Assembly: GCA_963768175.1 (NCBI GenBank)
Contig: CAVYGQ010000001.1
Span: 5,908 to 69,907 of the forward strand
Source of the DNA: Candidatus Doudnabacteria bacterium
GTDB taxonomy: Bacteria; Patescibacteriota; Doudnabacteria; UBA920
Length of the DNA: 64,000 nt
Reading direction: 5' to 3'
Shown here: positions 44,585-63,268 of the stretch, piece after piece
Layout: each line of letters starts with the position of its first letter
Numbering within the stretch: position 1 is the stretch's first letter
Position numbers and translations under genes: made by a program
The notes under the pieces: generated by a model
Database searches by the model: none
Told to the model about the DNA's origin: nothing
What the model saw: the letters and a program-made list of their open reading frames with translations, nothing else

Positions 44585-44606
44585 AAAATTAAAAATTATT
44601 GAAACT

Positions 44607-46799: not shown

Positions 46800-46843
46800 A
46801 CCGCTGAATGAACGCGGATTGCTACGCTGATTAGACGCTGAAT

Positions 46844-46868
46844 AAGGGCGGCCTACGGCCGCCCTTTT
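46844..46868 (+). terminator. Terminator AAGGGCGGCC-tac-GGCCGCCCTTTT after fusA
   Basis: Seen directly in the sequence. Confidence 0.6.
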
Positions 46869-47139: not shown

Positions 47140-47274
47140 TTATTGGTATTTCTTTTCCAGGCACCGAACTGCATAACCGATTGCCATCCCCATTGCGAGT
47201 AAGCCCGTGACGGGCCAAGTCAGATTAAGCAGGTAATGGCCGGCCAACAGACCGAGACCCATTATGGCCCACAT
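47140..47274 (-). CDS. Small hydrophobic membrane protein (44 aa)
   Basis: Strong RBS (AAAGGAGGCTGT-ATG) and two predicted TM segments. Confidence 0.35.
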   Translation of the reverse strand: MWAIMGLGLLAGHYLLNLTWPVTGLLAMGMAIGYAVRCLEKKYQ

Positions 47275-47395
47275 ACAGCCTCCTTTCGTGGAACACCAAG
47301 AATAGCAAAGAGACAAGCAGTTGTAAAGGCTTAAGAACAGGGGTATAATCAATAGCAGATATTAGGATATTGATTGATATTAAGATATTAAACAC

Positions 47396-47746
47396 ATGAC
47401 AAATCTAAATGATTTAATTAATCTAGCTAAAGCCGATGGAGGCAAGTTTTTTGTCATTGACGAGAGCGGGGATGCTAAGTTGGTGATAATGAGCGTGGAA
47501 GATTACCAGCGCCTGCTACTCGGCAAGCTCCAGCGCCAGGTAATGGATGTGGAAAGCATCAACAAGGAAATTTTAAAAGCCCAGCTGGAAGAGCAGCCTT
47601 CGTCGCCCGCACCGCAAACCAAAGGCCCGACTGTCGTCAACAGGCCGCAAGTCCATCAACAGCGCAATTCCGTTGATTTGCGCGCGGAAGTTATAGACCC
47701 GAGTTTTGATTTTGAAGGCCCGAAGGTGGAAATAGATGATTTGTAA
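47396..47746 (+). CDS. Phd/YefM-like antitoxin-fold protein with an unusual C-terminal tail (orphan, no toxin adjacent)
   Basis: N-terminal KFFVIDESGDAKLVIMSVEDYQRLL resembles the Phd/YefM fold. Confidence 0.4.
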   Translation: MTNLNDLINLAKADGGKFFVIDESGDAKLVIMSVEDYQRLLLGKLQRQVMDVESINKEILKAQLEEQPSSPAPQTKGPTVVNRPQVHQQRNSVDLRAEVIDPSFDFEGPKVEIDDL

Positions 47747-47898
47747 AACGCTGATTTCACGCTGATAAGGACGCTGAAATTACGCTGATGACAGGCGTGC
47801 CCATTCCGGAATTTTTGATTGAAATAAGATTATCATCGGCAATCAAAAATATCCGGAATCCAGAAACATATACATTATCATCTTAAAATCAAAATAGT

Positions 47899-48195
47899 GT
47901 GCAAGAAAAATTATATTACGTTTACATATTAGCCAACCACAAAAACGGGACTTTGTATACCGGATTTGCAAGCAACCTTGTGCAAAGGACATTTACCCAT
48001 AAAAACGATATTGTTAAAGGTTTTACGCAGAAATATCAAGTTCATCGGCTGATGCATTATGAAGTTTTTGAAGACCGGGACGAAGCCCTAAAACGCGAAA
48101 AACAGCTTAAAAAATGGCATAGAAAATGGAAACTGGAGCTTATTGAAGAAACGAATCCCGATTGGAAAGATCTTTACGATAAAATTGCAGGTTAA
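47899..48195 (+). CDS. GIY-YIG nuclease family protein (UPF0213/YhbQ-like)
   Basis: YYVYILANHKNGTLYTGFASNLVQRTFTH GIY-YIG motif. Confidence 0.7.
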   Translation: MQEKLYYVYILANHKNGTLYTGFASNLVQRTFTHKNDIVKGFTQKYQVHRLMHYEVFEDRDEALKREKQLKKWHRKWKLELIEETNPDWKDLYDKIAG

Positions 48196-48276
48196 ATTAT
48201 TTATTCTGGACCCCGGATATTTTCCAGACGATGAATTGCTTAAACTGAAAAATTCCGGGGTGGAGACACCTGTTTT

Positions 48277-49002
48277 ATGAAAAGGATACTGTTAGCATCA
48301 ATAACAATTTTAACAATTTTTCTTTTAGCCGCCGGATGCTCTAAAACGCAGCCGGCGGTTCAGACTGCGCCGGTAAGCCAAAATCAACCGTCACAAAACC
48401 AGCAGGCAAATCTATCACCGGTTTCCGCGACCACTACCCCACAAAAATCGGCAGCTTCCACTACGCCGCTGACCCTGAATGTTTACAACAATGCCGCGGA
48501 GCATTTTAAGGTTTTATATTTAAGTTATTTTAAACTTTTTACTCCGGCAAGTATAAAAGCAAATAATCCCAAGAGCGTAAATTTTTCCGCCTGCGTGCCG
48601 TATGGAATAATGCCGGGCTGGTGTTTTGTGTTAAATAATCAGCCTTATGCGGATACAAATTTGGAATCGGCGGGAGTAGCGATATCAATCTTAAAAAATA
48701 AAACCGGTATTGCCGATTGCGGGAATTTTAGCGCGCAGGATTTGGAGGGCGGCCATACCACAAGCCCGGTGCAGGCCAACGGCGTGGTTTTTGTTACGGC
48801 CACCGCCTCCGACGCCGGAGCCGGCAATTTTAGCGAAACTCATTTTAACAGGGCATTTTACGGAACAACCTGTTATGAAGTAGATGAAACTGCCAGGTGG
48901 GCTAACGCGGAGGTTTTTGACCCGCCAAGAACGGAGTTTGACCGGACAGATGTTTGGGGCAAGCTGGATGTTTTGAGGAACGGCTTTCAATTTGTTAAAT
49001 AA
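48277..49002 (+). CDS. Lipoprotein (lipobox LAAGCS) with a Q/N-rich linker
   Basis: Signal peptide plus Cys, then TAPVSQNQPSQNQ... Confidence 0.55.
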   Translation: MKRILLASITILTIFLLAAGCSKTQPAVQTAPVSQNQPSQNQQANLSPVSATTTPQKSAASTTPLTLNVYNNAAEHFKVLYLSYFKLFTPASIKANNPKSVNFSACVPYGIMPGWCFVLNNQPYADTNLESAGVAISILKNKTGIADCGNFSAQDLEGGHTTSPVQANGVVFVTATASDAGAGNFSETHFNRAFYGTTCYEVDETARWANAEVFDPPRTEFDRTDVWGKLDVLRNGFQFVK

Positions 49003-49600
49003 TGAAATGAGGAAATATTTTGTTATCGCATCAATTTTCCTTTTAGCCACCGGCTGTGCAAAACAGCCCGTCTTGCCCAGCGCGGGCCGAGGCGGACAAC
49101 CCCTAATTCAGACTGCGCCGATAAGCCAAAACCAACCGGCGCAAAATCAGGCGACATCCACGCCGGATCAAACCGCGACTTCCACTACAATATCGCTTCC
49201 GGTTAAGTATGATAATGCCCAATACGGATTTATTTTTTTTCTGCCCGCCGACTGGCAGGGGTATTCCATTTTGAACAAAACATGGCAAGGCACTCCCGCG
49301 GCTTCCGAAGGCGATGTAAATGCCGTTAAAGTCAGCGGACCTTTAATTTATATCCGCAATCCAAACTGGACAACCAAAAATCCTTATGAAGATATCCCGG
49401 TTGCGGTTTTTACACCGGATCAATGGGATCAAGTCCAAGCAGGACAGCTTGATGTTTACGCCGCCCCGTTCCCGCCATCCGAGCTCGGGCGTAATAAGAA
49501 TTATGTTTTTGGCCTGCCTCCCCGTTATAATTACGATTTTCGTGCAGGATTTGAGGAAGTCGAAAAGATAATGCAGAATAATCCTTTGGTTGGTTATTAA
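48992..49600 (+). CDS. Lipoprotein (lipobox LATGCA), a paralog of the preceding lipoprotein in its N-terminal region
   Basis: Signal peptide plus Cys, then TAPISQNQPAQNQ... Confidence 0.55.
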   Translation: MLNNEMRKYFVIASIFLLATGCAKQPVLPSAGRGGQPLIQTAPISQNQPAQNQATSTPDQTATSTTISLPVKYDNAQYGFIFFLPADWQGYSILNKTWQGTPAASEGDVNAVKVSGPLIYIRNPNWTTKNPYEDIPVAVFTPDQWDQVQAGQLDVYAAPFPPSELGRNKNYVFGLPPRYNYDFRAGFEEVEKIMQNNPLVGY

Positions 49601-49675
49601 TAATCATGGATTTAACCCCATTAGAAGTCAATGCCTAAAGGCATCAGTTGGCGCGATGCGCGCCAGATTTTTAAC

Positions 49676-49705
49676 AGGGTTGACAAATTTGATAAATAAC
49701 TTTAA
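49676..49705 (+). promoter_or_regulatory. Sigma70-like promoter for tuf (TTGACA-17-TAAAAT). The leader carries a copy of the CTTCGCTAAAGCTTCG repeat.
   Basis: Seen directly in the sequence. Confidence 0.5.
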
Positions 49706-49924
49706 AATAAGTTGTAGTTAAAAAATTAATTTTTGCTCTGGATTCCAATACGCCCCTGCTTCGCTTCCCCCTTCGCTAAAGCTTCGGGGGACAAGAAAGC
49801 TTCGCAGGGCAGGGAAAAAAAGAGATAAACCCTTGGTCTTGTGCCAAAGATCGATCAGGCACAGTGCCTAGGGTTTCTCGGGCAAATATCGCCCCCAGAA
49901 TGGGGGAAAAGAAAGGTTAAAACA

Positions 49925-51112
49925 ATGGCAGAAAAATTTGACCGCAGCAAGACGCACGTCAATGTGGGAACCATCGGCCACGTAGACCACGGAAAAACCA
50001 CTTTGACCGCCGCGATTACCATGGTGCTCGCCAAAACCGGCGGAGCCAAGGTCCGCCCTTACGACAGCATTGACAATGCCCCGGAAGAAAAAGCCCGCGG
50101 CATTACCATTAACACCGCGCACGTGGAATATTCCACGGCCAAGCGCCACTACGCGCACGTGGACTGTCCGGGGCACGCCGACTACATCAAAAACATGATT
50201 ACCGGCGCCGCCCAAATGGACGGAGCGATTTTGGTGGTTTCGGCCGCCGACGGCCCAATGCCCCAGACCCGCGAACATATTTTATTGGCCAGCCAAGTCG
50301 GCGTTAAGTACATTGTGGTTTACATGAACAAGTGCGACATGGTCCAGGATGCCGAACTTTTGGATTTGGTGGAAGAGGAAATCCGCGATCTTTTGACTAA
50401 ATATGGTTATCCCGGAAAAGATACTCCGATTATCCGCGGCAGCGCCTTAAAAGCCCTGGAAGGGGATGCCAGCGAGATGGGTGAAGGTTCCGTTAAAAAA
50501 TTGCTTGATGCTTTGGACACTTATATTCCGGATCCGAAGCGCGAAACCGACAAGCCGTTTTTGATGCCCATAGAAGATATTTTTTCCATTGAAGGCAGAG
50601 GAACCGTGGTTACCGGCAGGATTGAACGCGGAGAAATTAAGTTAAACGAAGAAGTGGAAATTGTCGGCTTAAGGCCCACCCAAAAAACCGTGGTTACCGG
50701 TATTGAAATGTTCAACAAACAGCTGGACAGCGGTATGGCCGGCGATAACGCCGGAGTTTTGCTCCGCGGCACCAAGAAAGAGGAAGTGGAACGCGGACAG
50801 GTTTTGTGCAAACCAGGTACTATTACCCCGCACACGGAATTTGAAGGCGAAATTTATATTTTGACCAAAGAAGAAGGCGGACGCCATACCCCGTTCTTTA
50901 AGGGTTATAAGCCGCAATTCTATATCCGCACCACGGACGTAACCGGCGATGTAACTCTTCCTGAAGGCCAGGAAATGGTTATGCCCGGCGACACCGTGAA
51001 ATTAGTCATTAAGCTGATTACCCCGGTCGCTTTGGAAGAAAAAAGCAAATTCGCTATTAGAGAGGGTGGTCATACCGTGGGTGCGGGCGTAGTTACTAAG
51101 ATCATCAAGTAA
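49925..51112 (+). CDS. tuf: Elongation factor Tu
   Basis: [30 protein letters not shown]... The ORF-track start at 49841 is an upstream in-frame extension. Confidence 0.97.
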
Positions 51113-51148
51113 AAAGATAAACACGGACTGATAATGGATTAACACGAA

Positions 51149-51184
51149 AAAGGACTGTCCTTGTTTAGGACAGTCCTTTTGGTT
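51149..51184 (+). terminator. Terminator AAAGGACTGTCC-ttgtttagg-ACAGTCCTTTT after tuf
   Basis: Seen directly in the sequence. Confidence 0.6.
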
Positions 51185-51389
51185 ATGTACGTTTGTTTAT
51201 CTGGTTGACTACAACTGCTTAAAACCGCGGCCGCGGTTTTAAGCAGTAACTTCTTCTTTCCACTCGCAAATGTTTGTGGGCGGGAAGAAGGGGACGAACA
51301 AACAGCGTTCGTCCCAAAGTGCATACCCTGAACCGCTAAAGAGCGGTTCAGCCGCTCGGATTGCCCGAGCAGCTCTGCCAGGATTTTGG

Positions 51390-52043
51390 CTATTTGTATA
51401 TGAGGCGTGTCGCCTCTCCCAGAGAGCGGAGGCGGCGCCAGTCAATTGCTACGGGGATTGGTGCGGAGACGGGGTACCATCTCCTCCAGCTCCCTTCTGA
51501 CCGGCAGGCCCAGATGGGACGGGCGAATTTGTCCACGAAAACTACCGTGGAAGATTCCGAGCCGCCGATGCGGGCGACCGCCTCTGCTGGCGGCCGAACG
51601 GCGGTCGTCCCCTTTGCGAAGCAGACTTCCTTCGGTCTGGGGTCGTTCCTGTGGGAGAAACACATCCGCCTTGCCTGTTGCAAGGTGACGTGCTCTTCTC
51701 GCCGTTCGGCCCGGATTTTGGGCAGGGTGCAGCGCTCCCACAGCCGGGTAGCTATCAGGCTCGCCGGGCACGGCCGGATGAGGAACTCCACCCCTCCGAA
51801 CTTCAATGTATGACCGATGTACGATCGGTCCAAACGCATACGGAATAGCGCGTCGACCACATACAGTGGGCCGACGGCCGCGTTGGTGTGATAGCCCTTC
51901 TGTCTTACTTCTTCAAAATCCCCCGGCTTTGGGGGCTCACTGAAGAAGCGGGTATGAATCCCATACCCGATCCCCGAAAGGATCGTGTCCTCCAGGCCGG
52001 CTACTCCAGCCTCGAAGTCCACTAGCAACAACATCTTCGCCAT
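51390..52043 (-). CDS. GC-rich (~60%) hypothetical protein (217 aa), inserted between tuf and rpsJ. Paralog of the frameshifted gene at 36761..37241.
   Basis: Strong RBS (AAGGAGTAAGAAA-ATG) at the MAKM start. Local GC is far above the window average. Hairpin clusters lie 3' of the gene (51270-51360), and an imperfect 24-bp inverted repeat (CTTATAGGGAGCAAACCAATTATC / GATAATCAATTTGTTCCCTATAAG) lies 5' of it (52100-52170). Confidence 0.5.
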   Translation of the reverse strand: MAKMLLLVDFEAGVAGLEDTILSGIGYGIHTRFFSEPPKPGDFEEVRQKGYHTNAAVGPLYVVDALFRMRLDRSYIGHTLKFGGVEFLIRPCPASLIATRLWERCTLPKIRAERREEHVTLQQARRMCFSHRNDPRPKEVCFAKGTTAVRPPAEAVARIGGSESSTVVFVDKFARPIWACRSEGSWRRWYPVSAPIPVAIDWRRLRSLGEATRLIYK

Positions 52044-52526
52044 TTTCTTACTCCTTCCCTTGCCAGTCACCTTGCGCCAGCTGGCGCAAAGCGAAATTCT
52101 GGGCTTATAGGGAGCAAACCAATTATCTTTAAAAGTTAGGATTTAGATAATCAATTTGTTCCCTATAAGAGTTGTTAGGAAAGAAATAAGGCAATCTATT
52201 TTATTTTGTCAAAGAACTAACCGATTGTCTGATGCCTAAATTTAGCTTCTCCACAAGGTCGAAGACTAAATATTTAGCATTCGGCAATACTGGCTCCAAA
52301 ATCTTATTTCAGATTTTGAAGTAATATTATAGCATATATTCAATTTTTTGTCAATACTGCCCATTTCTATTGACAAAAGCTACATCTTACTATAAACTAT
52401 TGCAAGTATGTTATTGTAACGCGGAAGGACGCGGAATTTAACGCGGAACAACGCGGAAGCTATATTTTTATCAATTAATAAGGCAAAAGTCGCCAGTTTT
52501 AGATTTGCGGACAAGGTCTTTAAAAA

Positions 52527-52850
52527 ATGGATAAGGAAGCCCAAGCTCCAAAGATTCGCATAAAGATAAAAGCTTATGACCATAAGCTTATTGATCAAAG
52601 TGCGAAACAGATTGTAGAGACCGCCAAACGCACCGGCGCGTCTATTTCGGGCCCGATTCCGCTTCCTACGGAAAAGACCAAGTATACCGTGCTTCGCTCC
52701 ACCTTTGTGCACAAAGACAGCCGCGAACAGTTTGAAATGCGCGTCCATAAACGGCTGATTGATATTTTAAACGCCACGCCAAAAACCATAGATTCTTTAA
52801 CGAACTTGAATTTACCGGCGGGAGTTGACGTAGAAATCAAAATGAGCTAA
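52527..52850 (+). CDS. rpsJ: 30S ribosomal protein S10
   Basis: [30 protein letters not shown]. Confidence 0.95.
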
Positions 52851-53087
52851 AGCTCATTTCTAGTTATAAAGTTGAAAGTTATAAAGTTAATAAAGTAAGT
52901 GAATTAGTTCTATTTTTCTTAGAGCTATAAGAAGGCCTAAGAAAATAACCCTCTCTGCCCGCCTTCGGCGGACATCTCCCCCAAAGGGGGAGAGAAATAA
53001 GGAAAGGCTATGTAGAAAACGATTTGCTCCAAACATTATCAAGTTTTTGATATTATTGCGGGCAAATCGGCCCCGCATTTTTATTTA

Positions 53088-53166
53088 GCAAGTAGGAAGG
53101 TAGCAAGTAGCTTGTAGCAACCGCAAGGCTACCGCCCTACTATCCTACAAGCTACAAGCTAAAGTT
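53088..53166. repeat. R3 family structured repeat, immediately 5' of the rplC start
   Basis: GCAAGTAGGAAGGTAGCAAGTAGCTTGTAGC...CTACAAGCTAAAGTT-ATG. Confidence 0.6.
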
Positions 53167-53856
53167 ATGAATTTTTTATTAGGCAGAAAATTAAATATGA
53201 CCCAGTATTTTGACGAAGCCACGGGCGAAGTAATCCCGGTGACCGTTATTTCGGCCGTCCCGATGACTGTAACGCAAGTCAAGGAAGCCGCCGGCAAAGA
53301 CAAATACAGCGCGGTTCAGGTTGGCATAGATAAAAAGAACCCTTCGACTTCGCTCAGGGCAAGAAAGCAGTCTAAATCTTTACAGGGACACTTAAAGGGT
53401 TTGGGTGCTTTTGCCGTTTTATCGGAGTTCAGGGTGAACGACGCAAACAGCTATAAAAAAGGCCAAAAGGTAGATATTTCCGGCTTTAAGCCTGGTGAAA
53501 TGGTCAATGTGGAAGGAACAAGCAAAGGCCGCGGTTTTGCCGGCGCGATGAAGCGCCACGGTTTTGCCGGTTTTCCCATGTCCCACGGCCACAACAGGCC
53601 GCGCTCTGTGGGATCTATCGGCCAACGTTTTCCCCAGCATACCAGAAAAGGTATGCGCATGGCCGGCCATATGGGCAACATCGGCGTTACCGTAAAGAAC
53701 TTGCAGGTTGTGGAAGTTGACCCCAAGAAGAATCTGATTAGCTTAAAAGGTGCCGTACCGGGACATCCTCACGCTTTGGTTAAAATAATTTCCACCGGAA
53801 GAGTTAAAGCTTTGGTAAAAGTGGAAGTTGTGAAGGAAGAGAAAAAGAAGAAGTGA
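53167..53856 (+). CDS. rplC: 50S ribosomal protein L3
   Basis: MTQYFDE...GKGFAG.MKRHGFAG. Confidence 0.95.
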   Translation: MNFLLGRKLNMTQYFDEATGEVIPVTVISAVPMTVTQVKEAAGKDKYSAVQVGIDKKNPSTSLRARKQSKSLQGHLKGLGAFAVLSEFRVNDANSYKKGQKVDISGFKPGEMVNVEGTSKGRGFAGAMKRHGFAGFPMSHGHNRPRSVGSIGQRFPQHTRKGMRMAGHMGNIGVTVKNLQVVEVDPKKNLISLKGAVPGHPHALVKIISTGRVKALVKVEVVKEEKKKK

Positions 53857-53866
53857 CGCCAGGCTT

Positions 53867-53967
53867 GGCGTCATCCTGAGTCCGCTCTAAGCAAATCTAG
53901 GCGGACGAAGGATCTCATCAAAGTTTAAGAGATTCCTCGGTCGGCTGCACTCCCTCGGAATGACGCC
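53867..53967. repeat. MITE-like element, GGCGTCATCCTGA family, between rplC and rplD
   Basis: ggcgtcatcctgagt...ctcggaatgacgcc. The ORF-track start of rplD at 53960 lies inside it. Confidence 0.7.
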
Positions 53968-53989
53968 GGATGACGGAAGTTATGAATCT

Positions 53990-54669
53990 ATGAAGACGAA
54001 TCTTTACAATCAAAAAGGTGAAACTATCGGCGATGTGGAATTAAACCCAAAGATTTTTGAGGTTAAACCCAACGAACATCTTTTAGCCGAAGCGGTAAGG
54101 ATACAATTATCCAATTCCCGCCAGGGCACCAGCAATACTAAAACCCGCGGCGAAGTATCCGGCGGCGGCAAAAAGCCCTGGAAGCAAAAAGGCACCGGCC
54201 GCGCCCGCGCAGGCTCAAGCAGAAGCCCGATTTGGCGCCACGGCGGCATTACTTTTGGCCCCGCTCAAACCGCAATTGGGAATTAAAAATCAACAAAAAG
54301 GCCAAGACCGCGGCGCTGTTTATGTCCCTTTCCGACAAGGCCAAAGAAAAGCAGTTTTTTGTCATTGACCAAATTGTTTTAGAAAACCCCAAGACCAAGG
54401 AATTCGTCGCAGTGTTAAAAGGTTTGGAAGCGAAGCTTTCCGTCGAAGGCGGATCCGCCTTTGGCGGAAAGAATTTGGGCAAGAAGCAAATGCTTATTCT
54501 TCCAAGAAAAGACGCAAAGCTAGTCCGTGCTACCAGCAATTTACAATCGGTCAATACCGTTTTGGCAAACAGCCTGAACCTGGTGGATGTAATAACGGCT
54601 AACAGCATTATCGCGCTTAAAGACAGTTTGCCGGTCATAGAGAAAGTATATCTTAAAAAAAGCAAGTAA
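53990..54669 (+). CDS. rplD: 50S ribosomal protein L4, with an apparent 1-nt frameshift near 54265-54290 and an in-frame GGCGGATCCGCC insert (54445-54467)
   Basis: Frame 2 [10 protein letters not shown]...[13 protein letters not shown] then frame 1 ...[20 protein letters not shown]... The shift lies at gggaattaaaaatc. Confidence 0.85.
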
Positions 54670-54670
54670 A

Positions 54671-54768
54671 ATGACAAAAACGACGGAAATGACAAAAATG
54701 AGCAAAAATAAACTACAGTTCTAATTTTTGTCATTTATTTAATTTTTTTAATTTTTGTTCATTAATTT
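54671..54768. repeat. Repeat family R1 (~97 bp: ATGACAAAAA..GAAATGACAAAAATGAGCAAAAATAAACTACAGTTCTAATTTTTGTCATTTATTTAATTTTTTTAATTTTTGTTCATTAA), immediately 5' of the rplW start. A near-identical copy lies at 61279-61378, 5' of rpsN.
   Basis: Two copies are >90% identical. Each contains the internal inverted repeat ATGACAAAAAT / ATTTTTGTCAT. Confidence 0.75.
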
Positions 54769-55150
54769 TATGGCCATTTTTTCCAAAAAACCAGAAACTG
54801 ACGAGAAGGTTGAATATAAAACGGATGACAAACCTTCCGCTACTGTCGGCAATGGCCCGACAATAAAAATCCCTACCATTTTAATCCAGCCCAGAATTTC
54901 CGAAAAAGCGGGTAGCTTAGCGCAAATGAACAAGTATGTTTTTTTGGTCGCAAAAGCCGCCAATAAAGTAGAGGTCAAAAAAGCGGTGGAAGCGGTTTAT
55001 AAAGTCAAAGTCACGCAAGTTAACGTTATAAATAATTATGGGAAGAAAAGAAATTATGGACAGACAAAAGGCGTAACCTCGGATTTTAAAAAAGCAATAG
55101 TAACACTAAAAGCTGGAGATAAAATAGAAGGGATAACGGAGACTATTTAA
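54769..55150 (+). CDS. rplW: 50S ribosomal protein L23
   Basis: ...VFLVAKAANKVEVKKAVEAVYKVKVTQVNVIN. Start placed at ATGGCC by analogy with the identical repeat/start junction at rpsN. Confidence 0.85.
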
Positions 55151-55246
55151 ATGACAAGAATGACATGATTGAGCAAGAATGACAAGGATCGCTGCAGTCA
55201 AATCATGTCAATCATTTAAATCTTTTAATTCATGTTCAATTAATCT
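55151..55246. repeat. Repeat family R2 (ATGACAAGAATGACA...CTGCAGTTAAATCATGTCAATCATTTAAATCTTTTAATTCATGT), immediately 5' of the rplB start. Other copies at 57775-57868 (5' of rpsC) and 62739-62837 (5' of rplR).
   Basis: Three copies share a >80% identical core ending within ~20 nt of the start codon. Confidence 0.75.
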
Positions 55247-56083
55247 ATGGCGGTAAAACTTTACAAACCAACAAGTGCCGGACGGCGCATCCAAAGTGTG
55301 ACCGATTATTCGGTATTGCGGAAAAAGTACAAAACACCTAAAGGATTAATAGTGAGCAAAGCCAAGCCGGCCGGCCGCAATAATAGCGGCAAGATCACCG
55401 TGCGCCATCAGGGCGGCGGAGCCATCCGCAAAACCAGGATTGTGGATTTTTCCCGGGCCGATAAAAAAGACATTCCGGCAAAAGTTTTGACCATAGAGTA
55501 CGATCCGACCCGCACCGCATTTATATCTTTGGTGTCCTACAAAGACGGCAGTAAGCGTTTTATTTTAACCCCACAGGGCTTGAAAGTCGGCGACAAGGTG
55601 ATGTTTGGGGAAAATGCCGAAATCCTTCCCGGCAACAGGCTAATGTTAAAAAATATTCCGGTCGGCTCTTTTGTTCATGATATTGAATTAATTCCCGGCC
55701 AGGGCGGGAAAATTGCCCGCAGTGCCGGCAATTATGCCATACTCCAGACTGTGGAAGCCGGTTATTCTTTGCTGAAAATGCCGAGCGGCGAGATACGCAA
55801 AGTCCGCGAAACTTGTTTGGCCTCCATTGGCCAGCTCGCCAACGCGGATTGGATGAATGTCAGAATAGGCAAGGCCGGCCGGATGCGGCATATGGGCTGG
55901 CGGCCCACAGTCCGCGGTAAAGTGATGAACCCGGTGGACCACCCGCACGGCGGAGGCGAGGGCCACAACCCGATTGGTATGAAATACCCAAAAACCCCGT
56001 GGGGCAAGCATGCTTTGGGGGTGAAGACGAGGTTAAAGAAAAAGTATAGCAACAGTTTTATAGTTAAACGAAGATCTAAGTAA
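55247..56083 (+). CDS. rplB: 50S ribosomal protein L2
   Basis: [10 protein letters not shown]...[11 protein letters not shown]. Confidence 0.97.
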
Positions 56084-56152
56084 GCAAACAACCAAGGGGC
56101 ATCCTTGGTCTGAGGACTAACTAAGTCAAAGGATGCCCCTTGGGTCAAAGTT

Positions 56153-56773
56153 ATGAAGAAATATTTTCTCCTTACAATCCCATTCCTGTTCCTCGCCGCG
56201 GCCTGCAATAATCAGCAAGCCCAGGTTCAGCCTGTGCAAAATCAGCTGGTGCAGACAGCACAGCAGCAGGTTCAGCCGGTACAACCAGCGCAAGTTCAGT
56301 CACAAGCACAGCAACCACAAGCTGCGCCAACCGATGAAACCGCAAATTGGCAAACCTACACGGATAGCTTTTATAATTTTACTTTTAAGTATCCCAATGG
56401 AATGGTTGCTAACCTATTAAAGTTAAATGGTTCAGTTGCCAATTCGGTGCCAAGTCAATATACAATTAAAATCAACAGACCCAATGACGTTACTACAAAC
56501 GGAGTAACAATTGGCGATGTTTCTGAGGCATTTTTGAATATCAGTGCCGCCCCTGTTAAAGTTACCGGTTCTACGATCAATATTGATAGTCCTTCAGGCC
56601 AAATAGCCGCTACCTACTCCACAGCAACTACCCCGATGGGATATACATATTATGAGTATGACTTTCAAAAAAATGGGAACTATTACTCATTTAGAATGAA
56701 TAACTACGATCCGGTTTTCCTGAGTGCGGCTGATTTCAAAAAAATGGTTGATACCATTAAGTTTGCTAAGTAA
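56153..56773 (+). CDS. Q-rich lipoprotein (lipobox LAAACNN) inserted inside the S10 operon between rplB and rpsS
   Basis: Signal peptide plus Cys followed by [28 protein letters not shown]... It is preceded by the palindrome at 56093-56140 (CCAAGGGGCATCCTT...AAGGATGCCCCTTGG). Confidence 0.6.
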
Positions 56774-56780
56774 TAAATAT

Positions 56781-57113
56781 ATGTCTAGAAGCTCAAAAAA
56801 AGGACCATACGTAGACCCAAGAGTACTCAAGAAAGTAATGGCGGGCAAAGCGGGCAAGACCCAGATTAAGACCTGGTCTCGCGCTTGCAGTATTGCGCCG
56901 GAGTTTGTGGGTTTTACCTTTTTGGTGCATAATGGCAGGACGCACGTGCCGGTTTTTGTGACGGAAAATATGGTTGGCCACAAATTGGGCGAATTTTCCT
57001 TAACCCGTAAGTTCCAGAGGCATGGCGGCAAGATGGCCAAAGAGCAGGAAATGGCCAAAGCCGAAGCCGAGAAGGCAAAGCTGGCCGCGGCAAAAGAACC
57101 GGAAAAAAAATAA
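56781..57113 (+). CDS. rpsS: 30S ribosomal protein S19 with a K/A/E-rich C-terminal extension
   Basis: [18 protein letters not shown]...[23 protein letters not shown]. Confidence 0.92.
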
Positions 57114-57138
57114 GACAAATAGGACCTATTAGACCTAT

Positions 57139-57765
57139 ATGACCAATAAGGCATCAACAACCGAATCAGGAAAGTTAGTCACGGCGCACGCCCGCGATCT
57201 TCATATTGCTCCCAGAAAAATGCGCTTGGTAACTAACTTAGTCAAAAATATGAACGCCTTGGATGCCTTGGTCCAGCTTCAGCATACCGACAAAAAGGCT
57301 TCGCCGATGTTAATTAAGTTAATCCAGTCTGCCGTGGCGAACGCCAAGAATAATTTTTCGCTTGACCCCCAGCATTTGTTTATTAAGGAATTGACCTGTG
57401 ATATGGGCAAAGTAATGAAGCGCTACTTTCCCCGCGCCCGCGGCAGCGCTTTTGAGATTAGGCGCAAAATGAGCCATGTGAACATTGTTTTGGAAGAGCG
57501 CAAGAAAGCCAAAGCCAGCAAGGTCAAGGCTGGATTTCTTACAAAGCCGAAAGCCGAAGAGAAAAAAGTCCAGAATGTAGATCAGCAGGCTGCCGTTAAT
57601 AAAGAACCCTCCTTCGCTCCCGACTTCGCTAAGGCTTCGTCGGGCAAGAAAGCTACGGAGGGCAAAGAAGTCAAAAAGAGCCAGGTGTTTAGGACGGACG
57701 AGCAGAAAAAAATGAGTACCGCGGCAAATAAGAGAAGGCTGTTTAACAGGAAGTCCGGAGAGTAA
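57139..57765 (+). CDS. rplV: 50S ribosomal protein L22 with a ~90-aa K-rich C-terminal extension containing the DFAKASSGKK repeat
   Basis: ARDLHIAPRKMRLV...QSAVANA L22 core. The extension includes EPSFAPDFAKASSGKKATEG (57600-57665). Confidence 0.9.
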   Translation: MTNKASTTESGKLVTAHARDLHIAPRKMRLVTNLVKNMNALDALVQLQHTDKKASPMLIKLIQSAVANAKNNFSLDPQHLFIKELTCDMGKVMKRYFPRARGSAFEIRRKMSHVNIVLEERKKAKASKVKAGFLTKPKAEEKKVQNVDQQAAVNKEPSFAPDFAKASSGKKATEGKEVKKSQVFRTDEQKKMSTAANKRRLFNRKSGE

Positions 57766-57868
57766 AATAATTGACAAAATTGACATGAATGAACAAGAAT
57801 GACAAAAATTTACTGCAGTTAAATCATGTCAATCATTTAAATCTTTTAATTCATGTCCAATCAAACCT

Positions 57869-58552
57869 ATGGGTCATAAGATAAATCCGACATCGTTTAG
57901 AATGAATATTACCGAAGGCTGGAAATCCAGATGGTTTTCCAAGGGGCATTTTTCCAAGCAGCTCATGGAAGACGTAAAAATACGTGAATATTTGGAACTG
58001 CACTTAAAGAAAGCCGGCTTGGTAAGAATTGATATTGAGAGATTAAACGATGGAACAATCACGGTAATCATCAGAACCACCAAACCCGGGTTGATTATTG
58101 GCAAAGGCGGCGCAGGAATTGAGGAATTAAAAAAGAAAGTTAAAACCAAATTGGGAATTAAGCAGGAGCTCAAGATTAATATAGAGGAAGTCCGCGACGT
58201 GAATTTGCAGGCCCAGGTTATTGCCAACGGCATTGCCGAACAGCTGGAAAAGCGCGTGGCTTTCCGCAGGCTGATGAAACAGAGCCTGGAGCAGATTATG
58301 AACGCCGGAGCCAAGGGTGCCAAAGTCGCTATTGGCGGACGGCTAAACGGGGCGGACATTGCCCGCACGGAGCATTTGTCGAACGGCAAAATTCCTCTTC
58401 ACACCCTTCGCGCCGATATCGACTTTGCGAGAGCGACTGCATTTACAACCTACGGCACGGTCGGGATAAAGGTTTGGATTTATAAAGGAGATGTGTTTGA
58501 GGACAAGAAATCCGGCGGTAAGACTAAAGTTATTGAATCGGAGAAAGTTTAG
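57869..58552 (+). CDS. rpsC: 30S ribosomal protein S3
   Basis: MGHKINPTSFR...KH domain... Confidence 0.95.
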   Translation: MGHKINPTSFRMNITEGWKSRWFSKGHFSKQLMEDVKIREYLELHLKKAGLVRIDIERLNDGTITVIIRTTKPGLIIGKGGAGIEELKKKVKTKLGIKQELKINIEEVRDVNLQAQVIANGIAEQLEKRVAFRRLMKQSLEQIMNAGAKGAKVAIGGRLNGADIARTEHLSNGKIPLHTLRADIDFARATAFTTYGTVGIKVWIYKGDVFEDKKSGGKTKVIESEKV

Positions 58553-58670
58553 TAGATATCTGTCTTTACTAACTACTAATCTTTACGAATATACTAAACC
58601 GTGAAGTCAGCATCAGTATATTGGTACCAATTAGTAGTTAGTAAATTAAGTAAGATAATCAAGTATATCT

Positions 58671-59087
58671 ATGTTTATACCGAAAAAATTAAAGCACAGA
58701 AAGCATCATCGCGGGACCACTAAAGGGCAGGCGACGGCCGGCCAGGAAATTGCGTTCGGCCAGTATGCCTTAAAGGCTTTGGAAAGTTCCTGGGTAACGG
58801 CCCGGCAAATTGAAGCCGCCAGGCGCGCCATGACCAGATACGTCCAGCGCGGCGGTAAAATTTGGATTCGCGTGTTTGCCGATAAGCCCGTAACTTTGCA
58901 CGGCAACGAAAGCCCGATGGGCGGCGGAAAAGGCGCGGTGGACCATTTTGTCAGCGTGGTTAAAAAAGGCAAAATATTATTCGAAATGGACGGGGTTACC
59001 AAGGAGCAGGCCCAGGAAGCCATGAGGTTAGCCAGCTACAAGTTACCGGTTAAATCCAGATTTTTAACAAAGGAACATCAAGGGTAG
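58671..59087 (+). CDS. rplP: 50S ribosomal protein L16
   Basis: [15 protein letters not shown]... Confidence 0.95.
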
Positions 59088-59160
59088 GTTAGTAGTATGT
59101 TGTAAGTTGGTAAGCAGCAAGTTACTTACAACTCTACAACTTAGAACTTACAACTTTTTT

Positions 59161-59355
59161 ATGAAGTACAAAGAACTTACAATCAAGACCGAAGCTGAAG
59201 TCAGGCAGCTGCTAATGGAGCTTCGCGAGAAGAGCCACGATTTATCGGTAAAGCTCAAGTTGAACCAGCTTAAAAATACCAAAGAGTTGGGCGCGGTAAA
59301 AAAAGACATCGCGAAGATAATGTTTTACTTGCACTCACGAAAAAGTAAACAATAG
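59161..59355 (+). CDS. rpmC: 50S ribosomal protein L29
   Basis: MKYKELTIKTEAEVRQLLMELREK...; start moved to the ATG at 59161. Confidence 0.8.
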   Translation: MKYKELTIKTEAEVRQLLMELREKSHDLSVKLKLNQLKNTKELGAVKKDIAKIMFYLHSRKSKQ

Positions 59356-59367
59356 CAATCCAGTTTT

Positions 59368-59444
59368 GGCGTCATCCTGAACGCAGTGAAGGATCTTAAA
59401 TATAGAGAAAAGAGATTCTTCGCGTACCGCTTAGGAATGACGCC
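59368..59444. repeat. MITE-like element, GGCGTCATCCTGA family, between rpmC and rpsQ
   Basis: ggcgtcatcctgaacgcagtgaaggatct...ttaggaatgacgcc. Confidence 0.7.
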
Positions 59445-59461
59445 GAAGGGAAAATCAATTT

Positions 59462-59707
59462 ATGGATAAAATTTCAAAAAAACAACAGCTCATCGGCATC
59501 GTCGTGTCTGATAAAATGGATAAGACCGTCGTGGTTAAAGTTGACATGAGAAAGCGCCACCCCAAATATAAGAAAGCTTATACCATTTCCAAAAAATTCA
59601 AGGCGCATGATGAAAACGAAGAGTACAAAATCGGCGACAGGGTGGTTATAGAATCCATTCGGCCGATGAGCAAAGAAAAGAAGTTTAAGGTTATAAGTAA
59701 AGCATAG
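59462..59707 (+). CDS. rpsQ: 30S ribosomal protein S17
   Basis: [16 protein letters not shown]... Confidence 0.95.
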
Positions 59708-59819
59708 ACCGCTGAATGGACGCTGATAGGGACGCTGAAAAAACGCTGAGAGCATAATCTCAGCTCAGCGACATGTCAGCGTAGTAATCAGCGACCAATC
59801 AGCGGAATAAGCAATATAT

Positions 59820-60212
59820 ATGCTACAAGTACGATCCTACATTAAAATAGCGGATAACACCGGCGCGAAAGTCGTCAATGTTTTCAGCGTCAACGGGAAA
59901 AACAGCAACCGGTTTGCCAGGATTGGCGATGTTGTAGCCGGCTCGGTAAGGCAGGTATCGCCGAATGCCAATATAAAAAAAGGCGATAAAGTTTATGCGG
60001 TAATTGTCCGTTTGCGCAAGGAAATAAGGCGCAAGGACGGTTCATACATCCGTTTTGACGAGAATGCCGGCGTGCTTGTAGACAAAGAATCGGGCGAGCC
60101 CAAAGGTACCCGCATTTTCGGCCCCGTCCCCCGGGAAATCCGCGAGAAGGCCAAAGGTAATTACGAAGATGGGTTTAAAAAAATAGTATCATTAGCTCCC
60201 GAGGTCATTTAA
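59820..60212 (+). CDS. rplN: 50S ribosomal protein L14
   Basis: [17 protein letters not shown]... Confidence 0.93.
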
Positions 60213-60225
60213 GAACTACCAGATT

Positions 60226-60298
60226 GGCGTCATCCTGAACGCAGTGAAGGATCTCCTCAAAGGAAAAGAGATTCCTCGCCCCGCTCGGGATGACGTCG
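60226..60298. repeat. MITE-like element, GGCGTCATCCTGA family, between rplN and rplX (near-identical to the copy at 59368-59444)
   Basis: ggcgtcatcctgaacgcagtgaaggatctc...ctcgggatgacgtcg. Confidence 0.7.
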
Positions 60299-60320
60299 AT
60301 GGGGGCAATAAATTTATTAT

Positions 60321-60641
60321 ATGAGCAACAAACTAAAGATTAGAACCGGCGATACCGTCAAGCTGTTGTCCGGCAAGGACAAAGGCAAGACCGGTAAGGT
60401 TATAAAGGTTTTTCCCAAAACGGGCAAGCTCGTGGTTGAAGGTGTAAACTCAAAAACCAGGTTTGAGCGTTCCAAGAAGGCGGGGGACTCCGGAAAGAAA
60501 ATAACCTTTTTTGCTTCACTCTTTGCCTCCAAGGTTATGCTGGTAGATCCGAATTCGGGAAACCCCACCAGGGTTTCATTTACAATTTTAGAAAACGGCA
60601 ACAAACAAAGAATCGGAAAGGACAGCGGAAAAGCTATATAG
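60321..60641 (+). CDS. rplX: 50S ribosomal protein L24
   Basis: KIRTGDTVKLLSGKDKGKTGKV KOW motif. Confidence 0.95.
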   Translation: MSNKLKIRTGDTVKLLSGKDKGKTGKVIKVFPKTGKLVVEGVNSKTRFERSKKAGDSGKKITFFASLFASKVMLVDPNSGNPTRVSFTILENGNKQRIGKDSGKAI

Positions 60642-60742
60642 CTCTACTAAATACTAAAAGGAGCGAAATACGAAATATAGAAAATCCCAAGTTTAGTATT
60701 TAGTTCCCTTTCGTATTTAGTAGAAAAATTTATTTAAATTTT

Positions 60743-61282
60743 ATGGAAAGACTTCAGGAACAATATAATAAGAAAATCGTCCCGGCTTTGAAAGAGAAGT
60801 TTGGTTTTAAGAATATTATGCAGGTGCCAAAAATCCTGAAAGTCGTGGTTAACGCCGGCGTGGGCAAATTTAAGGACGATAAAAAGAAAGTTGACCAGAT
60901 AGTGGAAGACATTAAAAAGATTACCGGGCAGGCGCCCATAAAGGCCAAAGCCAGAAAATCTATTGCCGGTTTTAAAGTCAGGGAAAACCAGGTTGTCGGG
61001 ATTGTCTGCACTTTAAGGGGTTTTAGGATGTATAGCTTCTTGGATAAACTGGTAAACGTGGCTTTACCAAGGGTCCGCGATTTTCAGGGCATTTCACTGG
61101 GCGGTTTTGACGGACGCGGTAATTATCATTTAGGCATTAAGGAGCATCTGGTTTTTCCGGAAATTTCCTCGGAAAGCCTGGAAAACATTTTTGGCCTGGA
61201 AGTATCGGTTGTCACCAACGCGAAGAAAGATGCGACTGCCGGGGAATTATTAACATTAATGGGATTCCCATTCAAGAAATGA
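60743..61282 (+). CDS. rplE: 50S ribosomal protein L5
   Basis: MERLQEQYNKKIVPALKEKFGF... Confidence 0.95.
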   Translation: MERLQEQYNKKIVPALKEKFGFKNIMQVPKILKVVVNAGVGKFKDDKKKVDQIVEDIKKITGQAPIKAKARKSIAGFKVRENQVVGIVCTLRGFRMYSFLDKLVNVALPRVRDFQGISLGGFDGRGNYHLGIKEHLVFPEISSESLENIFGLEVSVVTNAKKDATAGELLTLMGFPFKK

Positions 61283-61378
61283 CAAAAACGATGGAAATGA
61301 CAAAAATGAGCAAAAATAAACTACAGTTCTAATTTTTGTCATTTATTTAATTTTTTTAATTTTTGTTCATTAAACTTT

Positions 61379-61573
61379 ATGGCCACAGAAGCACAAATTG
61401 CAAAAGCAAAACGCAGCAGGATTAATCCGAAGTTTTCCACAAGACTCATCCGGCGCTGTTGGAAATGTGGGCGCAAAGCCGCATATATGAGGGATTTTGA
61501 TATGTGCAGGATTTGTTTTAGGGAGCTGGCTTCCAAGGGAGAAATCCCCGGAATAGTTAAAGCGTCCTGGTAG
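61379..61573 (+). CDS. rpsN: 30S ribosomal protein S14 (type Z, zinc-binding)
   Basis: [25 protein letters not shown]. Confidence 0.93.
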
Positions 61574-61679
61574 AAATAATTTTCAATTCTTAATTTTCAA
61601 TTTTTAAACAATTTTCAATGAATAAATTTTCAATAACTAATATTAAAAATTAGAAATTGAAAATTGAAAATTTTACTCT

Positions 61680-62078
61680 ATGTACACCGATCCTATAGCC
61701 GACATGTTAACCCGCATCCGCAACGCAAGCTTAGCCCAAAAAGCCGAGCTGGTTTTACCGTATTCCAAATTCAAGGCTCGCCTTGCGGAGCTGTTGGTTA
61801 AATCGGGTTTCGTTGCCGGCTGCACTGAGATGCTTTCGGGCGATAACCATAAGTTATTGCAGATTAAATTAAAGTATTCGGGCGCGGGCGAGCCGGTTAT
61901 AGCCGGAATTAAAAGAGTCAGCAAGCCGGGCCAGCGGATATATTTGGCGGCCGACAAGTTGCCCAGGACTAACAGCGGATACGGCGTAACGGTAGTTTCC
62001 ACTTCCAAGGGCTTGATGACGGACAAAGAAGCCCGCAAGTTAAAAGTCGGCGGCGAGGTTGTGTGCCAGGTTTGGTAG
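61680..62078 (+). CDS. rpsH: 30S ribosomal protein S8
   Basis: DPIADMLTRIRNA. Confidence 0.95.
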   Translation: MYTDPIADMLTRIRNASLAQKAELVLPYSKFKARLAELLVKSGFVAGCTEMLSGDNHKLLQIKLKYSGAGEPVIAGIKRVSKPGQRIYLAADKLPRTNSGYGVTVVSTSKGLMTDKEARKLKVGGEVVCQVW

Positions 62079-62179
62079 TATAAATGAAAAGTCCAAAAAC
62101 CAAAATGTTAAATAAATGATTCCGCCAAAGGCGGAAACCTAAATTTTAAACTTTGATATTTACATTTTAATTTTCTTTT

Positions 62180-62734
62180 ATGAGCAGAATAGGGAAAAAA
62201 CCAGTAGCCCTTCCTTCCGGCGTCAAGGCCGAAAAAAAAGATTTAACTTTGACCGTTACCGGTCCCAAAGGGATTTTGGTTTTGTCTTTGCATCCTAAAG
62301 TGGGAGTTACCGTAAGCGAAAAAGAAATTTTGGTTGACGTAAAGAGCAAAGATAACAAGCGCGAAAAAGCCCTGTGGGGACTATTCCGTTCCTTAATCCA
62401 AAATATGGTTGAGGGCGTAACCAAAGGTTTTGAAAAGAAATTGGAAGTTGTGGGTGTGGGCTTTAAGGTTGCCACAACTCCGGGCAAACTGACTTTAAAT
62501 TTGGGTTTTTCCCATCCGATAGTTGTTGAGGTACCGAAAGAGTTGACCATTGCCGTGGATAAAAACACCATCAGCATTTTTGGCGCCGATAAGCAGAAAG
62601 TCGGGCAGTTTGCCGCCGAAGTCCGCGAATTAAAAAAACCCGAGCCATATAAAGGCAAGGGCATTAAATATATAGACGAAGTGATTTTGAGAAAAGCGGG
62701 TAAGGTTGTTAAAGTGGTCGGGGGAGGAAAGTAG
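62180..62734 (+). CDS. rplF: 50S ribosomal protein L6
   Basis: MSRIGKKPVALPSGV. Confidence 0.95.
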   Translation: MSRIGKKPVALPSGVKAEKKDLTLTVTGPKGILVLSLHPKVGVTVSEKEILVDVKSKDNKREKALWGLFRSLIQNMVEGVTKGFEKKLEVVGVGFKVATTPGKLTLNLGFSHPIVVEVPKELTIAVDKNTISIFGADKQKVGQFAAEVRELKKPEPYKGKGIKYIDEVILRKAGKVVKVVGGGK

Positions 62735-62837
62735 AAAAAATTGACAAGATTGACATAATTGAGCAAGAATGACAAGAATGGACTGCAGTTAAATCATGTC
62801 AATTATTTAATTCATTTAAATCTTGATCAATCAAACT

Positions 62838-63191
62838 ATGAACAAGCAAAGGCAAAAAAGAATAAAGCGAGCCATCCGCCATCAAAGGGTAAGGAGCAGG
62901 GTAACGGGGACAGAAGGTAAGCCCAGGCTTTCGGTTTTTAAGGCTAACCGGCATATTTACGCCCAGTTAATAGATGACGGCGCCGGCAAAACATTAGTTT
63001 CCGCTTCCAGTTTGGAAGTTAAATCCAAGGGCAAAAAAAGCGATATTGCCAAAGAAGTGGGCAAGCTGGTCGCATCCAAAGCTTTGGCAAAGAAAATTAA
63101 GGCAGTGAAATTTGACCGCGGCGGTTTTGCGTATCACGGCAGGATTAAAGCCTTGGCGGAAGGCGCCAGGGAAGGCGGATTAGAATTTTAA
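62838..63191 (+). CDS. rplR: 50S ribosomal protein L18
   Basis: [37 protein letters not shown]. Start moved to the ATG at 62838. Confidence 0.92.
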
Positions 63192-63268
63192 ATATTAGGG
63201 GAGTAGGTTAGTAGGAAAGTAGCCAGTAGGCTACTGACCTACCATCCTACCAGCTACAGGGCTAAACT

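Follow-up and report, generated by a model that had tools for sequence, protein, structure and literature searches.

Bacterial and phage genomes offer partial precedents for unexpected or variable genes at conserved loci. The spc operon includes the non-ribosomal genes secY, adk, map and infA; Mollicutes carry the variable surface lipoprotein families Vlp, Vsa and Vsp; the Seg genes of phage T4 are free-standing GIY-YIG homing endonuclease genes located between conserved genes; and intercistronic palindromes are known from enterobacteria, as repetitive extragenic palindromic (REP) sequences and bacterial interspersed mosaic elements (BIME), and from Rickettsia, as palindromic elements. The adjacency of rplB and rpsS in the S10 operon is among the most stable of prokaryotic gene orders and belongs to the syntenic block used for phylogenomics of the candidate phyla radiation (CPR). 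Here we analyse a 64,000-nucleotide (nt) stretch of a genome of Candidatus Doudnabacteria, a group of ultra-small bacteria (assembly GCA_963768175.1, contig CAVYGQ010000001.1, positions 5,908–69,907; hereafter the window, whose first letter is position 1), in which a lipoprotein-type gene separates rplB from rpsS. We favour the reading, with a probability of roughly 0.62, that the gene is accessory and lineage-specific, has been incorporated into the S10 operon of some Candidatus Doudnabacteria and encodes a membrane-anchored lipoprotein with a variable PsbP/Mog1-like head. The arrangement was not found described in the literature on Doudnabacteria lipoproteins, S10-operon insertions or GIY-YIG genes in CPR bacteria.

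The inserted open reading frame (ORF; 56153–56773) encodes 206 amino acids (aa) and lies on the forward strand, as do rplB (ribosomal protein L2; 55247–56083), whose orthologues have recorded Pfam Ribosomal_L2 matches, and rpsS (ribosomal protein S19; 56781–57113). It is separated from rplB by 69 nt and from rpsS by 7 nt, and the next spacer, rpsS–rplV, is 25 nt long; the rpsS ATG is at 56781 and not at 56783, the start implied by the initial annotation of this DNA. That annotation had proposed, from the letters alone, that a lipoprotein gene was inserted at this junction and had called for a synteny comparison with related genomes. The ORF list, a lipobox rule (below) and that comparison all bear the proposal out: the order rplB–lipoprotein–rpsS recurs in at least 14 independent Doudnabacteria assemblies (ENA, JGI, NCBI and Logan) from different samples and assemblers, with RplB 65–97% identical to that of the window, revealing a conserved insertion and no misjoin. 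Besides the window, occupied loci are L001/L002, L003, L006, L007–L009, L010, L023, L066/L106, L090/L091/L098, L092, L093/L094, L101, L105/L107 and L108. The window RplB is 96–97% identical to Doudnabacteria RplB, and its RpsS is 95–97% identical to those of its nearest relatives. Some metagenome-assembled genomes with RplB close to that of the window are mislabelled 'Saccharibacteria', and others are labelled Candidatus Doudnabacteria (Patescibacteria/CPR).

An identical full-length 206-aa protein is also encoded on a separate Logan contig (P0215). In a near-identical public copy (P0001, on a 949-kb contig; nothing on record when looked up), the gene call starts at an internal GTG and yields a 179-aa product that lacks the signal peptide and lipobox (window 56153–56234). 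Standard annotation would therefore not flag this protein as a lipoprotein, a warning to annotators.

The N-terminus of the protein has the features of an exported, lipid-modified protein. A lipoprotein signal peptide and lipobox ending at Cys18 (56153–56206, forward strand) passed a PROSITE PS51257-style regular expression, which demands a positive N-terminus, a hydrophobic stretch without D, E, R or K, and then [LIVMFWSTAG]2-[LIVMFYSTAGCQ]-[AGS]-C, where the Cys must be among the first ~35 residues. The same rule was passed by 14/14 slot homologues, every copy of which retains the lipobox Cys, so the signal peptide and lipobox originally proposed for the window gene withstand rule-based testing across the homologues. 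Among ORFs of at least 80 aa in the window, only three carry a lipobox: 56153, 48277 (Cys21) and 48992/49007 (Cys17, counted from 49007). After the Cys comes a 47-aa Q/A/V/P-rich tether (56207–56347, forward strand; Q18, A7, V6, P5, N4) that opens with a conserved 12-residue stretch and ends in TDETAN. AlphaFold2 (AF2) modelled it as disordered, with a predicted local distance difference test score (pLDDT) of 53–67 for residues 1–50. Across the slot proteins, the motif that follows the Cys begins N(K/N) and leads into a Q/P/T-rich tether of 21–47 residues. The N-terminal 30 residues, comprising the signal peptide and the conserved post-Cys motif, are nearly invariant among slot homologues although the codons differ synonymously, a pattern that indicates purifying selection on this predicted module rather than recent DNA transfer. 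We infer that the slot protein is exported and lipidated.

The remainder of the gene (56348–56773, forward strand, including the stop codon) encodes a head of ~140 aa that is the hypervariable part of the protein and was classified as PsbP/Mog1-like with AF2, Foldseek and hhalign. The AF2 model of the 206-aa protein, with a mean pLDDT of 83 and values above 90 over most of the head, comprises a β-sheet domain and a C-terminal helix. Foldseek searches of the PDB ranked Tsi3 (3wa5_B), cyanobacterial and plant PsbP (2xb3 and 1v2b) and BT_1490 (3hlz) at the top, with a probability of 1.00, and also matched the head to Apa, Mog1, LpqN and DcrB (E ~5e-4). The alignment profile matched PsbP 2xb3 (E = 0.0026), and hhalign aligned window-type heads (A3) with the other slot proteins (A4) over the whole domain (98.6% probability, E = 1.3e-15, 136 columns). 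Three slot relatives exceed the gathering score of PsbP_2 (PF18933; 27 bits): L090a (41.5 bits), L006 (33.3) and L007 (30.8). Together, the profile alignment, the Foldseek matches and the PsbP_2 scores of the relatives place the head as a predicted divergent member of the PsbP_2/Mog1–PsbP-like superfamily, whose Mog1/PsbP-like scaffold is used in bacteria mostly by envelope binding proteins. NCBIfam returned nothing significant for the window protein.

Slot proteins share a first-strand motif, (T)DETANWKTYTN..YGFEFKYP..W, and most of them end in ...ILSTFKFTK, which in the window reads MVDTIKFAK. The closest relatives of the window head (46–47% identical) are the transmembrane-anchored proteins P0002 and P0003, which are encoded on short contigs without ribosomal genes and are nearer to it than any slot protein. 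Only about ten full-length relatives were found among 1.8 billion cluster representatives, and a scan of viral contigs revealed no relatives.

Between these conserved ends, the head varies extensively. When types were defined by at least 33% identity over at least 60% of length, 29 head modules sorted into 23 sequence types. Eight of these types are found in five genomes whose RplB is at least 95% identical and whose RplP, where the fetched stretch includes it, is 98–99% identical. DNA homology between the window and its relatives extends over rplB, the initial ~100 nt of the lipoprotein gene and rpsS; over the head it is absent, ending at ~56260–56355 and restarting at ~56757–56793. A single module type can occupy different positions: it is the second domain in L007, the first in L010 and the only one in L092, with 50–67% identity among the three. 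These patterns point to recombination as the likely mechanism of head variation.

The contents of the slot vary as well, from one to three tandem lipoprotein genes to two-domain proteins or an added small gene for a GIY-YIG nuclease. L023 carries lipoprotein genes in tandem, at least three of them, which share the N-terminal module and differ in their heads, and L090 and L105 carry two lipoprotein genes each; the two-domain proteins of L007, L010 and P0153 are joined at '...STFKF(T/I)NQTSDWKTY...'. The second lipoprotein gene of L090 (5001–5618; also found in L091 and L098) opens with a duplicated rpsS 5' end of ~18 codons (39/40 nt identical), fused to the signal peptide core at a KK/AAAAAG microhomology, and the ends of the two genes are alike. 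Its product would carry an S19-derived N-terminus, and the fusion has the appearance of a footprint of unequal crossover spanning the lipoprotein–rpsS junction. Slot proteins combine a conserved N-terminus with a variable, presumably exposed part, as do phase-variable or antigenically variable lipoproteins. A search for a within-genome switching device in the window's slot revealed no tandem or simple repeats, no flanking inverted repeats save a generic hairpin, and a single copy of the gene.

The insertion is closely fitted to the operon. Across the 12 lineages in which it could be read, the spacer from the lipoprotein stop codon to the rpsS start measures 7, 3, 10, 3, 26, 3, 0, 3, 21, 3, 3 and 1 nt (0–10 nt in 10/12; median 3 nt), and in the basal loci L066, L101 and L108 the gene also lies 1–3 nt from rplB, with no hairpin between them. 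A consensus scan detected no forward-strand promoter-like site at 56084–56781. The gene therefore resembles a regular member of the S10 operon: it lies on the same strand, has short spacers and is not set apart by a promoter or terminator. Because it abuts rpsS and follows a hairpin that has no U-tract, with no promoter in between, it is most likely co-transcribed with the operon by read-through, and translation of rpsS is probably coupled to the lipoprotein ORF.

That hairpin (56092–56143, forward strand), a member of a window-specific palindrome family, occupies most of the rplB–lipoprotein spacer. Its arms (56092–56106 and 56129–56143) form a 15-bp perfect stem (CCAAGGGGCATCCTT / AAGGATGCCCCTTGG) extended by inner pairs, with a minimum free energy of -34.0 kcal/mol (z = -8.0 versus shuffles). 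The initial annotation had recognized this palindrome, with coordinates 1–3 nt off, and had noted that its core recurs in a hairpin at 40726–40760, which lies between the convergent genes 38733–40427 (forward) and 40766–42070 (reverse). The recurrence is exact: the shared 13-mer core AAGGGGCATCCTT has exactly four copies in the window (0.02 expected), which are the arms of these two hairpins, and is absent from 175 related loci. The further suggestion that the palindrome brackets or insulates the lipoprotein gene did not survive comparison, as nearly every spacer of the ribosomal cluster, and the empty slots of relatives, have one, and no U-tract follows. On the forward strand the bases past the stem are GGGTCAAAGTTATG / GGGTCAAAGTT, which do not amount to an intrinsic terminator, and the terminator scan lists only a minus-strand candidate nearby, at 56110–56090.

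Throughout the str/S10/spc cluster (43871–63268), nearly every spacer is 70–120 nt long and holds a long stable hairpin (z down to -9.7) that ends 3–16 nt before the next ATG; comparable hairpins are present in ~18/22 spacers, the exceptions being lipoprotein–rpsS (7 nt), rpsS–rplV (25 nt), the spacer between the two fusA–tuf lipoprotein genes described below (4 nt) and rpsG–fusA. No Shine–Dalgarno sequence was found at any gene of this cluster. Relatives with an empty slot also have an rplB–rpsS hairpin, of lineage-specific sequence. The palindrome CTTTACTAACTACTAATC.TTACGAATATAC... occurs in the rpsC–rplP spacer of the window (58565–58645) and in the rplB–lipoprotein spacers of L001 (5901–6000) and L010 (938–1042), so these intercistronic hairpins behave as portable repeat elements. 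The hairpin at 56092–56143 is thus best regarded as a generic, apparently mobile intercistronic element rather than a feature of the insertion.

Several further observations concern repeats of this kind. Basal relatives have 1–30-nt spacers in place of the long hairpin spacers. Palindromic elements also lie in frame inside fusA (~44856–44925), rplD (54434–54473) and rplV (57616–57648) of the window. They lengthen EF-G by 23 aa, L4 by ~12 aa and L22 by 16 aa, and the orthologues of close relatives lack these residues; a stretch of similar kind, 'SASGGSASGGK', is present in S19 of L108 (rpsS 3548–3916). In-frame palindromes in essential translation genes recall the Rickettsia elements. A 97-nt repeat (99% identical) fills the rplD–rplW (54669–54765) and rplE–rpsN (61277–61373) spacers, and a second repeat family, with tandem (A/T)TGACA motifs that scored as promoter-like, is found in three other spacers, at 55144–55245, 57765–57866 and 62735–62836.

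A second junction of the translation gene cluster, fusA–tuf, also holds lipoprotein genes. Lipoprotein A (48277–49002, forward strand; 241 aa), which passes the lipobox rule and has an orthologue, P0197, in L095, is followed 4 nt past its stop by lipoprotein B (49007–49600, forward strand; 197 aa from the ATG; listed as ORF 48992/49007). The two carry QTAPVSQNQPSQNQ and QTAPISQNQPAQNQ, with the common motif QTAP(V/I)SQNQP(S/A)QNQ. The initial annotation took these and the 56153 protein to be paralogues, a claim that holds for the signal and tether N-termini and fails for the heads, which do not align. A and B match over ~80 residues of signal and linker (E = 3e-14), and the 56153 protein matches B (E = 2e-4) and A (E = 0.046) weakly and in the N-terminus only; full-length paralogy of the three was accordingly ruled out. 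Lipoprotein B has a faint PsbP_2 match (E = 0.15). In L095, P0197 lies between fusA and tuf on the same contig as L011, whose rplB–rpsS slot is empty. Among 80 metagenomic loci encoding proteins that end in ...ILSTFKFTK, six are in the rplB–rpsS slot, two (L121 and L124, whose proteins are transmembrane-anchored and PsbP_2-like) are directly upstream of tuf and ~70 are elsewhere; as the query was derived from slot proteins, the enrichment of slots in this count is biased upward. Envelope proteins predicted to belong to this superfamily thus appear to recur at two translation-cluster junctions, with fusA–tuf occupied in the window, L095, L121 and L124.

Both junctions are also associated with small GIY-YIG nuclease genes. 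One (47899–48195, forward strand; Pfam GIY-YIG, E = 8.6e-17) is directly upstream of the fusA–tuf lipoprotein genes in the window, and its product is 52% identical to one encoded in the rplB–rpsS slot of L003. Genes for 95–113-aa GIY-YIG proteins lie between rplB and the lipoprotein gene in L003, L092 and L093, that is, in 3/14 occupied and 0/~59 empty slots, an association that is suggestive with regard to mobility and not proof of it. The window's own slot (56084–56780) has no GIY-YIG ORF. The slot GIY-YIG genes are flanked on both sides by a repeated palindrome (L003 1911–2540, L092 4505–5000 and L093 1672–2086), GTGTCATTGCGAGG...GCAATCTT in L003 and L092 and GTGTCATTCCC...GGGAATCC in L093, which suggests that a palindrome-flanked GIY-YIG gene may be a compact mobile unit. 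Elsewhere in the fusA–tuf slot, a 116-aa ORF (47396–47746) has a weak, below-threshold match to Phd/YefM antitoxins (E = 0.013).

Loci retrieved through lipoprotein searches are biased toward occupied slots. We therefore took as the least biased sample an RplB-based scan with one genome per species, which provided ~62 Doudnabacteria loci with a readable junction. Three of these are occupied, L010 (1104-nt gap), L066 (559 nt) and L023; empty Doudnabacteria slots have gaps of 1–180 nt. All non-Doudnabacteria outgroups that were fetched have rplB–rpsS gaps of -26 to 82 nt, indicating that the junction is normally closed. On a neighbour-joining tree of seven ribosomal proteins, which is rough and has no support values, the window, L007, L010, L090 and L006 form one tight occupied cluster whose sister, L011, is empty, and the remaining occupied loci occur one by one amid empty ones. 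L066 branches deeply, as does the L101/L105/L108 group, and the nearest labelled neighbours of these branches, L061 and L063, are empty. Given this patchiness, the occupied state is either old or laterally spread, and it is frequently absent; the tree and the flanking genes favour neither many losses nor several gains.

Two features of the wider cluster lie outside the slots. In the window, rplD is split into two ORFs (53960–54286 and 54232–54669) by an apparent 1-nt deletion in a C-run, through which relatives read, probably a homopolymer sequencing error. The tuf–rpsJ gap (51113–52526; 1.4 kb) includes a 600-nt G+C-rich patch (0.60–0.63, the window being at 0.46) in which both strands carry overlapping ORFs; none of these ORFs has a Pfam match, and the gap has no Rfam match. 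An Rfam scan of the whole window returned three tRNAs and nothing else.

In the reading we favour, the conserved signal peptide and lipobox, together with the Q-rich flexible tether, would display the PsbP/Mog1-like head outside the membrane. Read-through from operon promoters past the rplB hairpin would transcribe the gene, and ribosomes finishing the lipoprotein ORF would go on to translate rpsS. Output of the lipoprotein would thereby be tied to ribosome synthesis, making it high and growth-linked with no need for a dedicated promoter or regulator. The conserved ends, signal and tether at the 5' side and '...ILSTFKFTK' plus the rpsS start at the 3' side, would frame a head that could be replaced, duplicated or shuffled between lineages. 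A surface protein on which host-cell contact or phage, for instance, exerts diversifying pressure would be expected to behave in this way.

Several points weigh against this account. Occupancy is rare, at the three of ~62 species representatives given above, and most of the clade can therefore do without the gene. Co-transcription and translational coupling are read from spacing and nothing else. No Pfam family matches the window protein at E <= 1; the protein falls below the PsbP_2 gathering threshold, and its Foldseek TM-scores are modest (0.5–0.6 normalized on the target) at 8–14% identity. Part of the extreme divergence of the heads could be due to rapid vertical evolution instead of exchange. 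No co-conversion signal was found in the flanking RplB and RpsS, in which occupied loci are no closer to the window than empty ones, and the low GC of the head (0.37) is common to all slot heads. We also considered GC content as an indicator of foreign origin and rejected it as uninformative, as every slot head is AT-rich.

Alternative explanations were weighed against the same data. That the arrangement is an assembly misjoin or a spurious ORF has a negligible probability. A homopolymer error is likely in at least one place in the window, at 54259–54263, where rplD is frameshifted, and the single-base details of the window need care; however, the gene order is shared by independent assemblies from four sources, the identical protein recurs on P0215, and the lipobox and domain motifs are conserved. 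Misassembly is excluded by the synteny data. It is also quite improbable that the hairpin at 56092–56143 is a terminator or insulator that makes the lipoprotein and downstream genes a transcription unit separate from rplB. Such a role would fit its great stability and the same-core hairpin at 40726–40760, whose location between convergent genes is one at which a terminator would be expected and which is followed by T-rich TTATTCTTT. However, a U-tract is missing on the forward strand, the 9 nt between hairpin and ATG leave no room for a promoter, no forward-strand promoter-like site was detected in the spacer or gene, and if all of the comparable hairpins in cluster spacers and empty slots were terminators, the operon would not be expressible. 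Alternatively, the lipoprotein gene could be the passenger of a selfish mobile cassette, built on the GIY-YIG gene or the palindromic elements, that inserts beside highly conserved genes, carries or recruits a lipoprotein gene and spreads laterally by recombination with the conserved flanks, with no functional link to the operon. The restriction of GIY-YIG genes to three occupied lineages (hypergeometric p ~0.003), their palindromic flanks, the related GIY-YIG gene that precedes the fusA–tuf lipoproteins, the patchy occupancy on the ribosomal protein tree and the presence of one palindrome in different spacers of different genomes all argue for it. Nonetheless, we consider it unlikely: the window's slot and most other occupied slots have no GIY-YIG gene, the 95–113-aa proteins consist of the catalytic domain without the DNA-binding domain of known homing endonucleases, and the single weak TIGR01453 match among them scored 21 bits against a cutoff of 56. 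Moreover, the basal loci L066, L101 and L108 have neither repeats nor a nuclease gene, and their lipoprotein gene, 0–3 nt from its neighbour on either side, looks old and integrated; viral contigs hold no relatives, and the flanks carry no co-conversion signal.

A purely vertical origin of head diversity, by which one ancient insertion was followed by many losses and by very fast divergence of a weakly constrained head with no cassette exchange, is possible but doubtful. As such a history would predict, all heads belong to one superfamily and retain common motifs in the first strand and the last helix, the insertion is present across deep lineages of Doudnabacteria, and the flanks are free of co-conversion. 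Vertical descent is harder to reconcile with genomes that are 98–99% identical in RplP and 95–97% identical in RplB and whose heads share no detectable similarity apart from a 20-aa motif, with the module type that shifts position among L007, L010 and L092, and with a window head that is closer to P0002 and P0003, outside any ribosomal context, than to any slot protein. We also entertain, tentatively, a bolder extension of the accessory-gene reading, in which the rplB–rpsS junction (and fusA–tuf) would be a dedicated, recombination-driven 'display slot' that swaps and duplicates PsbP-like heads between conserved ends, with stoichiometry hard-wired through coupling to S19 and with strain-specific heads serving host attachment or phage resistance in episymbionts.

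If the slot gene is an accessory member of the S10 operon, as we favour, this core operon can acquire and retain accessory genes even in reduced genomes. A slot flanked by universal genes is in addition an easily located marker of strain-level surface variation in metagenomes of uncultured Doudnabacteria, and its lipoprotein can be named as a candidate determinant of specificity towards host or phage in organisms about whose cell biology almost nothing is known.

The locus fits none of the systems with which we compared it fully. The initial annotation had considered that co-transcription of a surface lipoprotein with core ribosomal proteins would be unusual. The example of secY in the spc operon, mentioned above, shows that an envelope protein co-transcribed with ribosomal proteins is not without precedent; what is unusual is the position and the hypervariability. 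Like secY, adk, map and infA, the slot gene has a predicted envelope-related, non-ribosomal function, shares a strand and tight spacing with ribosomal protein genes and is presumably co-transcribed with them. However, those genes are found almost universally, have conserved sequences and lie distally in spc. The slot gene, by contrast, is clade-restricted and present in a minority of species; it interrupts the core of S10 at a junction that every outgroup examined keeps closed, and it encodes a main domain that is hypervariable. As for the fold, the predicted head resembles that of PsbP, Tsi3, DcrB, LpqN, Apa and BT_1490; slot relatives exceed the PsbP_2 threshold, and several bacterial members of this group are envelope lipoproteins or secreted binding proteins. 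By contrast, the window protein itself is below every Pfam threshold, its identity to solved structures is 8–14%, and the fold gives no ligand or partner.

The occurrence in L003, L092 and L093 of a GIY-YIG ORF between conserved essential genes, with a patchy distribution, recalls the Seg genes of T4, but the slot GIY-YIG proteins (~95–113 aa) consist of the catalytic domain only, the window's rplB–rpsS slot has none, and no co-conversion of the flanks was detected. As with REP and BIME and the Rickettsia elements, families of stable palindromes populate operon spacers, and in the window they also lie in frame inside fusA, rplD and rplV; unlike those elements, to which they are unrelated in sequence, they reach an extreme density of nearly one per spacer of the ribosomal cluster. 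The Vlp, Vsa and Vsp families of Mollicutes likewise join a conserved signal peptide and N-terminus to a highly variable exposed region, and tandem copies are present in L023, L090 and L105. In contrast to those families, no switching device was seen in the slot (no invertible promoter, homopolymer tract or short tandem repeat tract); the variation seen lies between genomes, in a folded domain rather than in repeats, and inside a ribosomal operon.

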